Virus record (IMG/VR): IMGVR_UViG_2713896909_000009
Coordinates: 32,673 to 96,672 of that record
DNA: 64,000 nt
Source of the DNA: a virus
Taxonomy: Duplodnaviria > Heunggongvirae > Uroviricota > Caudoviricetes
Strand: one strand, 5' to 3'
In this document: one piece after another, positions 15,094-39,960 of the stretch
Position numbering within the stretch: position 1 is the first letter of the stretch
Layout of the letters: each line of letters opens with the position of its first letter
Notes under the pieces: generated by a model
The model's input: the letters and a program-made list of their open reading frames with translations, nothing else
The model's database searches: none
What the model was told of the DNA's origin: nothing
Position numbers and translations under genes: made by a program

Positions 15094-15234
15094 TGGTTAT
15101 CCCTCAATAAAAGTGACATATTTATTAGATTGCGGTGCCGGGTGCCTCCCGGTGACGTTAACCAGTTAACAATTAACGCCGGAATGTTTAATCATCAAGG
15201 AGGATTGTTTTAACTGTTCCGCGTGCGCTTAGCC

Positions 15235-15329
15235 GCATTCACCACAACGGAAAGAGCATTTATGGCTCGCATCGCGGGAAAAAGCCCACGGTAGAGAGTC
15301 GAACTCTACAAATACTCTTACCTGTTGTG
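15235..15329. repeat. dispersed repeat unit 1 (conserved flanks forming a long terminal stem)
   Basis: Left flank GCATTCACCACAACGGaAAGAG, right flank CTCTTACCTGTTGTG; variable interior with internal hairpin GTAGAG-AGTCGAA-CTCTAC. Confidence 0.6.
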
Positions 15330-16387: not shown

Positions 16388-16482
16388 GCATTCATCACAA
16401 CGGTAAGGGTACTTCGTAGGGATTCGAACCCTCTGCCAAGCTCGGCGATCTCCGACGTCGCAAAATACCCTTACCTGTTGTG
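16388..16482. repeat. dispersed repeat unit 4 (abuts 3-prime end of tRNA-like gene)
   Basis: GCATTCATCACAACGGTAAGGG ... CCCTTACCTGTTGTG; interior contains AGGG-ATTCGAA-CCCT hairpin. Confidence 0.6.
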
Positions 16483-16483
16483 C

Positions 16484-16616
16484 TGGTGCCGGTTAACGGA
16501 TTCGAACCGCTGACCTCTGGCCTAACATCGAATCGTTGTCATTTGACCAGCAAGGCTGTCTACCGAAGTAGAAACGATGCTTTGGCTCTCGTGCTCTCCC
16601 ACTGAGCTAAACCGGC
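16484..16616 (-). tRNA. tRNA-like gene with about 58-nt internal insertion (identity unresolved; Thr by P1 synteny)
   Basis: Canonical 5-prime end GCCGGTT-TA-GCTCAGTGGGAGAGC and 3-prime end AGCGG-TTCGAAT-CCGTT-AACCGGC-A-CCA, but 80 nt lie between D-arm and variable loop. Confidence 0.45.
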
Positions 16617-17365: not shown

Positions 17366-17382
17366 GAATTTATTAGAGCAAT
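17366..17382. promoter_or_regulatory. C1 operator-like site
   Basis: gAATTTATTAGAGCAAT, about 16 of 17; positioned to control leftward transcription into the tRNA array. Confidence 0.5.
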
Positions 17383-20300
17383 ATAGCAATAACGTCATGA
17401 GCTACACCACGAGTGTTCCCCTTACAAGACACAGAACGTCTGGCAAAAAGAGGTTCCACTCTGAAGCCACTGTCTTGGTAAAGCTCCCTGATGTTTGGCG
17501 CACCACTATTAGTAATGAGGATCTTTGCACCTCGGCGATGAGCATCCATTAGCAGAGATACCAGGCGTTTTTGCTCTTCAAACTTAAAGTCATGACCGGA
17601 ATAGTTTGTGAACCCCTCTGTATTGGGGAGCGGTTCATACGGAGGATCGCAAAAGATGACATCTCCTTCTCCGGCAGCTTCAATCACCGCTGAAAAATCA
17701 CCACATACAAACTCAGAACGCCCTTCAGCACCGAGGAAGGCTTCCATCTCCTGTAATGGGAAATACGGAGTTTTATACTTCCCATAACCAACATTAAACT
17801 CACCGGCCTGGTTGTAACGCGTCAATCCGTTAAAACAATGTCGGTTCAGGAACAAAAACGCTGCTGCACGATGTAAATCATCATAGGCTTGTTTGTTAAA
17901 CGCATTCCGTACTGCCAGGTATCCTTCCTGTGTGTTGTAGTCCTGGAAAAACCGATGCGCCAGAGTGATAAGTGAATGTCCCTCACGTTGCAGAGTCCTG
18001 TAAAAGTTAATCAGGTCAGCATTCACATCATTTAGCAGATTTTCTTGATATCCGGCATTTATGAAAACAGCTCCGCCACCAACGAAAGGCTCGATCAGGC
18101 GCTTTCCGTCAGGTAAATGCCTAAAGATTTGTTCAAGAACACCAAATTTTCCGCCGACCCATTTAAATATGGGACGGTCAAATTCTGCCGTTAGCTTAAC
18201 TCTCCGTTCTGTTGCTTCATGATTTTTTGCCTGCTGATATGCAGCCTTAATAATCCGCTCACCAATCCATCGCATTACTGGTATCGCCATGCTATTGCCG
18301 ATCGCTTTGTAACGCGGTCCGTCAGCTGCAAGCATCGCGGCCTCTTCTTCGCTTAAATCTGGATAGTGATTGCGAAGGTATGCCAGTTCATCTGAAGTAA
18401 CTTTTTTACGCTTTTCCGTCGGGATCAACGTATGCCCATCAGGAAAACCTTGCAGTCTTTCACATTCGACAGGGGTAAGACGGCGGACAGCTACTGCTGC
18501 GTTTCCTACGTCATAGCAAACGGCTGTTGTATTTTTGGCCATTAAAGATGGTGAAGTATTCTTAGTTGCAGCATGTTGTGTACCGCTCATACGTTCAGGA
18601 AAAGCCAATGTAACAAGATGCTCATGGCTTTCTTGCTCACGTGCCCGCAATGTACCATGCCCTTCTGACCAAAAACCTGCTCCTGTGCTGCTAAAAACTG
18701 CAAGGTCAGTGGCATCTTTAAAGTCTCTCGCCTTTACTGTCGATGCGGTTTCATCGCCAATATATTCCCCAAATGCCGCCATCCTGAAAGCGTTTACGGC
18801 TTTCGTCGATTTCATACCGGGGGTAATGTCAGCGTGTAGGCATGGATTTAGGCTTTCGCCACTGATTGCAGCGCCATTTGCAATAATGGCGGAAGCGATT
18901 TCCTTCTTTTTTCGGCTCGGCGCAATATTCCGGCGCACGCCTTCGAACTCAAAAAGTACCGTTGCGGGATCGAGGTCTGTTCGAGCACTTGCGACAACAA
19001 ACACACGTCGGCGTCGTTGTGCCACTCCGAAGTATTGGGCATCAAGGATTCTCCAGGCCACCTTTCGCTGCGGTCCATAAATACAACCACACTGCGGCCA
19101 CTTTGGAGCATGGCAACCGGTTTTGCCATCCCACCGCCAGAACGCGTTACTTTTTCCTGATTCAGGTCGATCACCTGGTTCAAATGGCGCATCTTCTCCA
19201 GCCAATCCGGCAAGGAAACATCCGAAGGCGTTATCTGCCGATGACAAGACTCCTGGGACATTTTCCCAGACGATAACGGCTGGTTTGAGAAATGACTCAG
19301 CCCGTTTGTCGTCAATTGCATTTGCAAGCTCCACATACTTTAAAGTTAGCGCGCCACGCTCATCATCAAGCCCACCACGTAATCCCGCGATACTGAATGC
19401 CTGACAGTTATGGACCACCGCACCATTGAGGATATAGGAATGATCACCTTCGACTTCTATGTTGTATACAGTATCTAGGCCTACCGATTTAAACTCTTTG
19501 ACTGTTCGTAAAAGCATTCCATGAGCCAATCTTGATTTACGTGACAATTTCTGCGGGCAGATTGTTACCTGATAATAATTCCGTTGATTTACCACGCGAT
19601 CCTCGATCACTTTTTTGGGCTCAACTTCAATAAAGCTGACCGAAGAAACATAACCACAAGTCTGTGACACCCCCGCAACGCCCCAAGCAAGCGCAGGACT
19701 AACACTATTAATTCTAAATCCCGCTTTACCACTTGGTGTCCCATCAGTATCAAGATAGCCTTGTAAAAACACATGACGCAATGGATGCGACATCACCCAT
19801 GCAGGGATACGCTTAGCATGGCTTAACTCGCCAAAATGTTCATTAAGCCAATTGGCATAACACGTATCATTCAAGGTTACTTTGATGCTCCCTCGGATTT
19901 CTCTTGCCACGGAAAATATGTTTTCTGGTATGCGACAATGAAACTTTCTCAATTTCTGGCAATTTATGCAAAAAACAACCGCCTTCTTAGATTTACCTCT
20001 CCATCTCCTAATATATCCATCGCCAACATAAGCGCCCGCAAGATACATAGCCTGTTCTTCAGACAAGAACCGAGAACAAATATCTGGAGATGCAATATTG
20101 AAATTAGTTAGAGCGCACCATTGATATCCTGGCATATCACATGCTGCTCGCCATTCCGGTTCAGACAACAACTCTCTCTTAAAATATGTGCCATTTTTCC
20201 GGGTGTTTTGGGCTTTCCACCGAACAGCCAGGAAGGGATGGTCATTGGTTGTTCTTATACCTAAAGGCTGCCCAACGGCATTAAGTAACCCCGTATTAGC

Positions 20301-20660
20301 TATTTTTGAACCAACTCTTTTTACTTGTTGTAACCGCCCGAGATGACTGACTACGTAATCGCCAGGGCAAACATCTTCTATTGGTTTATAACCATTTTTA
20401 CAAAGAACCATATGCCCCGCGGTAAAACATGGTGTTCCCCCGACGAGCACGTCAGGGGATTCTATTTCCCCAGCCAGGACTTTTTTGGCAAGTTTAGTCA
20501 TGTCGCCAAGGTTGGCGACATGGGGCCAGCGGTGCGCAAGAACGGCCGATGGAAAAGACTCGATTTCAGCAAACCACGCCGGACGCATACCCAACGGTTC
20601 CCAGGCAATACTCGCGGCTTCAATTCCACTGCAAACAGATCCATAGCACAGCTCTTTCAC
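17373..20660 (-). CDS. dmt: bifunctional DNA methyltransferase: C5-cytosine MTase (intein-interrupted) fused to Dam-type N6-adenine MTase
   Basis: C5 motifs [41 protein letters not shown]; Dam motifs [19 protein letters not shown]; 1095 aa including a 341-aa intein. Confidence 0.85.
19407..20429 (-). mobile_element. intein with LAGLIDADG homing-endonuclease domain, inserted at the catalytic Cys codon of the C5-MTase
   Basis: Starts CFTAGHMVL (block A), TTNDHPF (block B), [11 protein letters not shown] and [10 protein letters not shown], ends VVHN followed by Cys+1; excision restores GGTPCQAF. Confidence 0.75.
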
Positions 20661-32418: not shown

Positions 32419-33234
32419 ATGAGCAAAAACTTTTTTCAATCCGGGGCATTTTTGGGGAATGGACTGTCTCGTTTCGCTTTGAACTCTGATCCTGTGCAGC
32501 TGATGGAGTCTGCCCGAGCAAGCGCCGAACCGCCAACAGATCCGGTTATTAATAATAATCCGGAACCGGCGGCACAGACTAACGATAACGTTCCATCTGC
32601 CCCGGCTCCTGAGCAAATCCTGGAAGGGAAAGACGGTAAAGAATGGACCGTCGAACAGGCGCACCAGATGATTCTGGAAGCTGCAAATCGAAGTGCTATG
32701 CAGAATGCGTTGAGTGATGCGGCCGACGCCGTTTTCGCCTGGGCTGATAGCGGTGATCTGACTTTCGACTCCCTTGATGGTTTCGTTCAGGCTATCGCTG
32801 GTATCTCTGATGACGACGACTCCGAAGTTACAGAAGAACAGGACGATGCCTATAACGAAGCATGGGCAAATGTTGCTGACTTCCTCGCAGCATGCGGTGT
32901 AGATGATGACCTGATCGAAGCACTGGCTGACGATGAAGACGACGACGCAGCTGCTGATGTTGGTGCCTCTATCGCTGGTTTAGATAGCGACGACCGCGAC
33001 GAACTGGAAGCGGCGTTTGTTGTTGCTGGCACTTCTGATGAAATGCTGACTGAAGCATTTAAGAAGGTTGTTCGTAATGGTGAGATCAAACTCATCCGTA
33101 AACGCCTGCGTAAAAAACGTCTGACTGCGGCTCAAAAATCGGCGCTGAAAAAAGCACGCCGTAAAGCCCAGACCGGCGCGGCAAAACTGGCCCGCAAAAA
33201 GTCAATGAAACTGCGCCGTAAGCGCCTCGGCTAA
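32419..33234 (+). CDS. hypothetical protein, acidic body with Lys/Arg-rich C-terminal tail
   Basis: Asp/Glu runs (DDEDDDAAAD) then KRLRKKRLTAAQKSALKKARRKAQ. Confidence 0.5.
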   Translation: MSKNFFQSGAFLGNGLSRFALNSDPVQLMESARASAEPPTDPVINNNPEPAAQTNDNVPSAPAPEQILEGKDGKEWTVEQAHQMILEAANRSAMQNALSDAADAVFAWADSGDLTFDSLDGFVQAIAGISDDDDSEVTEEQDDAYNEAWANVADFLAACGVDDDLIEALADDEDDDAAADVGASIAGLDSDDRDELEAAFVVAGTSDEMLTEAFKKVVRNGEIKLIRKRLRKKRLTAAQKSALKKARRKAQTGAAKLARKKSMKLRRKRLG

Positions 33235-39849: not shown

Positions 39850-39960
39850 TGCTACCCGCTGCTAAACAGGTGGCAGGACGTGACGGGGTTAGCAGACTGG
39901 CGTTAGTGAAACCAGCAGGCCGAAGCCTCCCCATCACGCCCCACCATAATTTGGGCGTAA
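39850..39960 (-). ncRNA. candidate c4 antisense-RNA region (approximate)
   Basis: Between operator and icd; short mutually complementary segments (CTGCTAA / TTAGCAG, CCTGCT / AGCAGG); boundaries not determined. Confidence 0.3.

Follow-up and report, generated by a model that had tools for sequence, protein, structure and literature searches.

A Predicted Homing Intein Splitting the Catalytic Motif of the Dmt Methyltransferase in P1-like Phage-Plasmids

Introduction

In a 64,000-nucleotide stretch of viral DNA (Caudoviricetes; positions 32,673 to 96,672 of the IMG/VR record IMGVR_UViG_2713896909_000009; the whole stretch is called the window below), the gene dmt encodes a Dcm-Dam methyltransferase of 1095 residues, whose catalytic Pro-Cys-Gln (PCQ) motif is interrupted by 341 additional residues. 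This arrangement raises the question of what the insert is, whether it can leave the protein that it splits and spread among related genomes, and what this would mean for DNA methylation by its host. The insert is interpreted here as a canonical class-1 intein with a nested two-motif LAGLIDADG endonuclease, which would splice itself out of Dmt and home into intein-less dmt alleles; the probability of this interpretation is estimated at roughly 0.8. Splicing, nuclease activity, the target site and homing are deduced from established intein chemistry together with the sequence.

Anatomy of the Insert in Motif IV

The Cys residue of motif IV serves as the catalytic nucleophile of the C5-cytosine methyltransferases (C5-MTases). 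In the window, the insert is located directly before this residue (Table 1), as proposed in an earlier note made from the sequence alone. The coordinates, the length and the motifs quoted there proved correct, and the Cys start, the block A and B signatures, the two LAGLIDADG motifs, the terminal His-Asn pair and the catalytic Cys as the +1 residue are all present. The note's reading of the insert as an intein is supported by every sequence-level feature examined, and the domain models and the predicted structure agree with it. The segment is an exact insertion absent from the orthologues; it displays a predicted HINT fold with blocks A, B, F and G, Cys1, the TxxH signature and His-Asn followed by Cys at +1, and its nested domain combines an alpha/beta core with two helices, each ending in an acidic residue, as in LAGLIDADG enzymes. 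The host protein, in turn, is recognizable as P1 Dmt by the fusion of PF00145 to PF02086 and by the position of its gene in a P1-like genome, within the operon uhr-hrdC-dmt.

The intein motif scan suggested in the earlier note returned three models above their cut-offs, namely Hint_2 (Pfam; 29.3 bits, cut-off 28.4), LAGLIDADG_3 (Pfam; 27.6 bits, cut-off 22.5) and TIGR01443 intein_Cterm (NCBIfam; 28.9 bits, cut-off 15.6), with PF14890 Intein_splicing staying below threshold (18 bits, cut-off 35.8). The search of the PDB with the intein sequence yielded weak matches, the best of them to the C-terminus of the Spl DnaX mini-intein over blocks F and G (7cfv, E = 0.0011). The AlphaFold2 model, built on 15 sequences, had a mean predicted local distance difference test score (pLDDT) of 90.9 and a predicted template modeling score (pTM) of 0.89. 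Compared with the PDB by Foldseek, it retrieved intein homing endonucleases as all of its top 16 matches, including PI-SceI (E = 5e-18), TliVMA (template modeling (TM) score 0.63), PhoVMA, PI-PfuI and PI-PkoII; free-standing LAGLIDADG enzymes (I-SceI, I-OnuI) and mini-inteins followed at lower ranks. In accordance with the earlier note, removal of the insert in silico leaves a 754-residue protein in which the sequence GGTPCQAFS is restored and PF00145 matches motif IV continuously (profile positions 5-119; 126.2 bits vs. 105.7 bits in the precursor). The guanine-cytosine content of the intein DNA is 42.7%, as compared with 55% and 52% in the adjoining extein DNA.

A bacterial intein-like (BIL) domain, some other Hint domain or a free-standing endonuclease inserted in frame could be mistaken for an intein, and in the records examined, the names “Hint domain-containing protein” and “LAGLIDADG family homing endonuclease” do appear, though on fragments only. 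BIL domains are Hint domains that carry no nested endonuclease, as a rule lack a nucleophile at +1, and reside in variable, non-conserved proteins. Terminal His-Asn with Cys at +1, blocks A, B, F and G, a nested endonuclease, location in a conserved motif and absence from orthologues are, on the contrary, typical of inteins, and the BIL structure 2lwy was only a weak match, so a BIL domain was rejected. In-frame insertion of another element into a phage methylase does have a precedent, i.e., the ShiLan domain (PMC11855218); an element of this kind, as well as a conserved non-splicing domain of Dmt, was ruled out since the orthologues lack the segment and all the intein blocks are present. The overall chance that the insert is something other than a true intein is close to negligible.

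Table 1. Features of the dmt precursor gene and of its insert (window coordinates; aa, amino acid residues; nt, nucleotides; ORF, open reading frame).
Feature	Window position	Strand	Remarks
dmt precursor ORF, 1095 aa	17373..20660	-	C5-cytosine MTase + intein + Dam MTase; gene order as in P1
N-extein, aa 1-77	20430..20660	-	Motif I of the C5-MTase (SVCSGIEA); motif IV up to GGTP (first half); residue -1 is Pro
Intein, 341 aa (precursor aa 78-418), 1023 nt	19407..20429	-	Between GGTP (ends aa 77) and CQAFS
N-terminal splicing (HINT) region, intein aa 1-110	20100..20429	-	Hint_2 match at aa 77-126
Block A, Cys1, CFTAGH	20412-20429	-	
Block B, TNDH, intein aa 61-64	20238-20249	-	
LAGLIDADG homing-endonuclease domain, intein aa ~119-292	19554..20075	-	LAGLIDADG_3 match; AlphaFold2/Foldseek
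LAGLIDADG motif 1, YLAGAYVGD137G (Asp137)	20013-20045	-	
LAGLIDADG motif 2, FLQGYLDTD229G (Asp229)	19737-19769	-	
C-terminal splicing region, blocks F and G, ending VVHN (His340-Asn341)	19407..19472	-	TIGR01443 match
+1 Cys codon TGT (Cys419)	19404..19406	-	Splicing C-extein nucleophile and motif IV (PCQ) catalytic Cys
C-extein remainder	17373..19403	-	Motifs VI (ENV), VIII (QRRRR), X (GNS), variable middle, Dam domain
Dam domain, aa 829-1093	17382-18176	-	DPPY motif; intact in the precursor

Presence and Absence of the Insert at One Site

The alignment with intein-free Dmt homologs, also suggested in the earlier note, revealed that P1, P7 and pEC00592_4 lack exactly the 1023 nucleotides in question at the same codon boundary, so the alleles differ by a clean in-frame insertion and the segment is not a conserved domain of Dmt. 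The junction of the intein-free dmt alleles reads ...GGAACACCT/TGTCAGGCA... (the slash marks the boundary), the last codon before it being CCT; the intein allele reads ...GGAACACCA/TGTTTT...CATAAC/TGTCAGGCA..., with CCA as the last codon before the intein.

Both allele types are common among P1-like elements. Of the phage records, 13 are uninterrupted (e.g., the P1 reference, P7, SJ46 and JL22) and five carry the insert, including RCS47, vB_EcoM-Ro157c2YLVW and the “P1” isolate OP279344. Among PLSDB plasmids, 342 have the uninterrupted junction and 133 have the insert, the latter being from Escherichia, Salmonella and Shigella; in 5426 complete E. coli genomes, the respective numbers were 323 and 152, the latter making up about 3% of the genomes. 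All the full-length plasmid intein copies (126 of 126) are gapless and at least 98.5% identical, and the copy on the Escherichia albertii plasmid NZ_CP117630.1 shares 100% of its sequence with that of the window. A comparison of seven copies codon by codon revealed no stops or frameshifts; these copies vary at 13 amino-acid positions, ten of which belong to the nuclease domain, and blocks A, B, F and G are free of substitutions.

None of the intein-bearing records examined marks the intein, and the gene is called Dmt or a Dam-family methylase in them; hence, the protein lengths and functional inferences for such alleles are misleading. Five of the 153 intein copies from complete E. coli genomes are located on records labelled as chromosome (e.g., NZ_CP015229.1, 1844818-1845840), which could be integrated P1-like elements or assembly artefacts. 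The record OP279344.1 (“Escherichia phage P1 isolate del res del mod”, grown on MG1655) combines the intein with a P7-type middle part of Dmt, unlike the P1 reference genomes, so a laboratory strain with the intein may already exist.

A Family of Inteins in Motif IV of C5-Methyltransferases

The insert is not confined to Dmt. A word-indexed search retrieved relatives 47-52% identical in other C5-MTases and about 30% identical in actinobacterial and alphaproteobacterial proteins, along with one mini-intein; all of them are placed between a Pro (or Glu) and the Cys of motif IV. The exhaustive HMMER scan of 1.84 billion representative sequences gave 4394 matches at E <= 1e-3, of which 192 reached E <= 1e-30. 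Pro occupies position -1 in 140 of the 154 full-length relatives, and 135 of them end in His-Asn, the +1 residue being Cys in 149 of the 153 in which it is readable; the consensus of the flanks is GG[TS]P/C...HN/CQxxSxAG. The sequence downstream of the intein was covered by PF00145 in all eight relatives scanned, one of which is another Dcm-Dam fusion, and in seven of them the best stretch resumes at profile position 71 directly past the intein. Since most relatives are of metagenomic origin, the breadth of the family is only roughly known; it takes in Enterobacteriaceae, Pasteurellaceae, a Pseudonocardia and a Parvibaculum.

Conservation was assessed in 138 relatives sharing 26-56% identity with the intein of the window. 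Cys1, Thr61, His64 and Asn341 are invariant in this set, and conservation amounts to 87% at His340, 95% at Asp137, 98% at Asp229 and 99% at Lys206. Conservation of this kind indicates that both the splicing and the nuclease activities have been under long-term selection. The similarity of the inteins correlates weakly with that of their exteins (Pearson 0.36): inteins 55-58% identical occur in exteins only 17-20% identical, and converse pairs exist as well. This discordance points to movement of the inteins between divergent methylase genes.

Several relatives appear to be family members at different stages of decay. In Mannheimia haemolytica (P0010, 578 contigs), an intact intein is followed by a truncated C-extein; a Rodentibacter protein annotated as a complete cytosine methylase (P0023) actually starts within the C-terminal 48 residues of an intein; and P0022 harbors a mini-intein of about 150 residues without the nuclease at the same Pro/Cys site.

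The most unusual trait of the Dmt intein is the Pro residue at -1. The near-universal presence of this residue in the family, taken together with the invariant N-terminal catalytic residues, suggests that inteins of this family cope with Pro. If they do splice, they would offer ready-made Pro-tolerant scaffolds, the Pro junction having been a limitation in intein biotechnology.

Flanking DNA and Signs of Mobility

The DNA around the insertion site was compared in 13 alleles, a small sample comprising seven with the intein and six without it. The intein occurs in two dmt backgrounds, i.e., with the P1-type middle part (extein of 754 residues) and with the P7-type one (extein of 672 residues); the third type is so far represented by intein-free alleles only. 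The base at -1 is A in all seven intein alleles and T in all six intein-free ones. Downstream of the site, a single haplotype common to all the intein alleles spans +24 to +117, and its end-point varies, lying at +126 (RCS47), +129 (an E. albertii plasmid) or +160 (pHNSD133T1). Upstream, four intein alleles carry synonymous changes at six positions from -22 to -1; five of these (-22 to -7) form a second haplotype that occurs in no intein-free allele. Divergence of the intein-free P1-type alleles from the window is concentrated within about 160 nucleotides of the insertion site, and the rdgC haplotypes further upstream are shuffled among intein-bearing and intein-free alleles. Such a mosaic of flanks with variable end-points is the pattern that co-conversion during homing would leave, general recombination being an alternative source.

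Two intein-free alleles, pEC00592_4 and pSA186, feature downstream flanks of the intein type but T rather than A at -1, which argues, though not decisively, against their simple origin by loss from the present intein alleles.

It is conceivable that the intein splices but that its endonuclease is no longer active. The presence and absence of the intein and the mosaic flanks would then go back to a single old invasion, after which P1-like plasmids underwent ordinary homologous recombination. The great uniformity of the copies is what a single recent origin would give, the amino-acid variation falls mostly in the endonuclease domain, and P1-like plasmids recombine freely, as seen from the swapped middle parts of Dmt. 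Conversely, Lys206 and the Asp residues of both LAGLIDADG motifs are intact, with 95-99% conservation in distant relatives; no copy has lost the nuclease domain, although a mini-intein exists in the family; and the divergence of the intein-free alleles clusters close to the insertion site. Weighed together, these points make an inactive endonuclease unlikely, albeit with an appreciable share of the probability.

The codon for Gly74 (window 20439-20441) differs in the P1 reference (L003) and in one further allele (L012), whereas all the other alleles examined encode Gly. The P1 reference Dmt has the change G74W within the GGTPC motif, and STEC799 has G74V. Substitution at this position might compromise the C5-MTase or modify the site that the endonuclease presumably recognizes.

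Proposed Splicing and Homing

According to the proposed scheme, the 1095-residue precursor would be translated from the C1-repressed uhr-hrdC-dmt operon. Cys1 would then drive an N-S acyl shift of the bond between Pro77 and Cys78, Cys419 at +1 would attack the resulting thioester, and Asn341 would cyclise with the help of His340; a final S-N shift would deliver the 754-residue Dmt with GGTPCQAFS restored, along with the free 341-residue intein. Before splicing, the active site of the cytosine methylase would be split and its nucleophile tied up in the splicing reaction, the Dam domain presumably being already folded. In a cell that contains two P1-like genomes, the intein, either released or still part of the precursor, would cut the intein-less dmt at ...ACACCT/TGTCAG... 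(with longer flanks, one such junction reads GTGCTCGTCGGGGGAACACCT/TGTCAGGCATTCAGTATCGC), and recombinational repair would copy the intein, together with some flanking extein DNA, into the cut allele.

Since the +1 Cys is at the same time the nucleophile of motif IV, and this motif is split by 341 residues, the C5 arm should be inactive until splicing. The earlier note had extended this dependence on splicing to the methyltransferase activity as a whole, which goes too far: the dependence is to be expected of the C5-cytosine arm, which is split, but the Dam domain is intact in the precursor. Cytosine methylation by the intein-bearing phage-plasmids would, therefore, hinge on a predicted post-translational step, which matters for the interpretation of methylomes and of anti-restriction.

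A more far-reaching version of the splicing scheme holds that a large natural family of inteins has adapted to splicing next to Pro, which defeats most of the inteins tested, with the host enzyme's catalytic Cys serving as the +1 nucleophile, and that slow or redox-gated splicing turns Dmt into a two-stage enzyme in P1-like phages, so the intein would time or gate a part of the phage DNA modification and would not be purely selfish. If this were true, the precursor would be Dam-active and cytosine methylation would arise only after splicing; we consider this elaboration speculative and rather doubtful. Closely related is the explanation of the intein as a regulatory switch in which slow or conditional splicing, governed either by a redox trap between Cys1 and Cys+1 or by the rate limit set by Pro at -1, delays or gates cytosine methylation relative to Dam methylation during lytic growth. 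A disulfide between these two Cys residues could form, the Dam arm lies outside the split domain, and conditional splicing is documented in other inteins, e.g., the DnaB intein (PMC6195587). Nothing in the sequence, however, calls for regulation, selfish homing inteins generally occupy conserved catalytic motifs, and about 70% of the P1-like dmt alleles do without an intein, which renders a regulatory role improbable.

The preferred reading of the insert as a splicing and homing intein also has to be weighed against a number of opposing points. In block F, position 4 (intein Asn323, window 19461-19463) is Asn, as in 86% of the 138 relatives (Asp in 12%), Asp being the usual residue at this position in class-1 inteins. 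The pN/pS ratio (nonsynonymous to synonymous polymorphism) in the seven P1-set copies, 0.14-0.57, is based on few substitutions. Mosaic flanks similar to those described above could result from ordinary recombination among P1-like plasmids. In the searchable literature, no experimental demonstration of splicing or cleavage by the Dmt intein or any other family member was found. The P1 reference annotation gives C5 methylation by Dmt only as “perhaps”. Most of the inteins tested reportedly splice poorly or not at all when Pro occupies -1 (PMC6486613). The gene dmt is not needed in dam+ hosts (PMC10695390; PMC12707154), so selection to keep the C5 arm, or the spliced product, may be weak.

Some of these points would fit a fixed insertion that has lost splicing, i.e., a precursor that stays unspliced or undergoes only C-terminal cleavage, leaving a Dam-only enzyme with its C5 arm lost. 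In the inteins studied to date, Pro at -1 disfavours the first step of splicing, dmt is needed for its Dam activity only, and only in dam- hosts, and going by the annotation, the C5 activity of P1 Dmt was never firmly shown. Yet none of the 138 relatives, nearly all of which have Pro at -1, departs from Cys1, from the Thr and His of block B or from the terminal Asn, a pattern expected only if the N-terminal chemistry is under selection; moreover, the C5-MTase motifs of the exteins are intact and the copies compared are free from frameshifts and stops. Loss of splicing is thus judged quite improbable.

Relation to Known Inteins

Phage enzymes of DNA metabolism are well known to harbor LAGLIDADG inteins within their conserved catalytic motifs. 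The closest structural counterparts of the Dmt intein are PI-SceI (Sce VMA1) and the archaeal TliVMA, PhoVMA, PI-PfuI and PI-PkoII (E = 5e-18 to 3.5e-9, TM score up to 0.63), which share with it the HINT fold with a nested double-motif LAGLIDADG domain, Cys1, His-Asn and the +1 Cys. Their sequence identity to the Dmt intein is 11-17%, and they differ from it in host gene, organisms and insertion site; the Dmt intein is also smaller (341 vs. 454-537 residues) and is preceded by Pro. The Ssp and Spl DnaX mini-inteins, the latter being the best sequence match in the PDB, lack an endonuclease and reside in another host protein. Splicing next to Pro has been reported for few inteins, among them an engineered Ssp DnaX (PMC6486613); this Pro is engineered there, whereas it is native in the Dmt family. 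The intein-less P1 Dmt (NC_005856 gp069) has orthologous exteins, and its length of 754 residues equals that of the predicted spliced product.

Inteins in phage methylases have been described before. A 2025 preprint lists C-5 DNA methylases among the intein hosts of actinobacteriophages (bioRxiv 10.1101/2025.01.02.630785), and these hosts belong to the same enzyme family as that of the Dmt intein (IPR001525/PF00145). Its accessible text mentions no insertion site and neither P1 nor enterobacteria, while the host of the Dmt intein is the Dcm-Dam fusion of a proteobacterial phage-plasmid. Among the relatives found here, P0017, P0018 and P0020 (29-31% identical to the Dmt intein; one is from a Pseudonocardia) occupy the equivalent position, SPE/C...N/CTNHS. 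The papers on the mycobacteriophage inteins DNMT-1 and DNMT-2 (Kelley et al. 2016, PMC5050341) and on an actinophage methylase intein (PMC9957025) likewise depict phage methylase inteins of patchy distribution and horizontal spread; the hosts of DNMT-1 and DNMT-2 are N6/N4 methylases (PF01555), i.e., another enzyme family and another site than those of Dmt (PMC5050341). Papers on Pectobacterium phage CB7, restriction-modification systems of Halobacteria, the Bryopsis chloroplast, a B. thuringiensis phage and a glacier virome were checked and found irrelevant.

The earlier note was not aware of an intein at this site. In the open-access literature, no account was found of an intein that lies in P1 Dmt or interrupts the PCQ motif, an absence that is not proof; the site itself, nevertheless, is not rare, as at least 140 clusters (at 50% identity) of relatives share the same Pro/Cys position. 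The Dmt intein thus seems to be undescribed so far, and its interest lies in the native Pro at -1 and in the tractable E. coli phage that hosts it. This phage lineage is among the best studied in E. coli, and the homing intein, which seems intact, is present both in sequenced phage isolates and in about 3% of complete E. coli genomes; homing, co-conversion and fitness effects could, therefore, be tested with standard P1 genetics.

Gene and Genome Context

The window represents a P1-like (Punavirus) phage-plasmid: the order of the genes uhr-hrdC(rdgC)-dmt matches that in P1, and its identity to P1, P7 and RCS47 amounts to 95-97% across 14-24 kb. The C4 immunity antisense RNA was located at positions 39866-39951. 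The start codon of dmt, GTG, overlaps the stop of the upstream rdgC/hrdC gene as it does in P1. The Pfam and NCBIfam models assign PF00145 (C5-MTase) to the N-terminal part and PF02086 with TIGR00571 (D12/Dam) to the C-terminal part of the ORF, as in P1 Dmt, and the C5-MTase motifs I, IV, VI, VIII and X of the extein are all intact. Plus-strand ORFs overlapping the region were dismissed as by-products of the minus-strand dmt.

P1-like elements differ in the middle part of Dmt (residues ~600-760, window ~18380-18860), of which at least three unrelated versions exist: the P1-type, the P7-type (about 82 residues shorter) and the pEC00592_4-type (about 108 residues longer), with nearly identical flanks. 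Presumably, this middle part represents the target-recognition region of the C5-MTase.

Two further observations concern possible RNA genes on the minus strand. Positions 15131-15246 gave a borderline Rfam match to the gammaproteobacterial small RNA STnc100 (47.3 bits at a gathering threshold of 47, with partial coverage of the model). Positions 16481-16616, adjoining a tRNA-Asn gene, are the counterpart of the P1 tRNA-Thr gene; neither ARAGORN nor Rfam calls this counterpart a tRNA. It retains the acceptor, D and T arms and the CCA end, but its anticodon arm of about 20 nucleotides is swapped for about 78 nucleotides (16515-16592) including a UUCG-capped hairpin; the folding energy is -49.3 kcal/mol (z = -3.3). 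Eleven plasmid records (E. coli, E. albertii and Salmonella) contain the same 136-nucleotide form, conserved with 92-100% identity.

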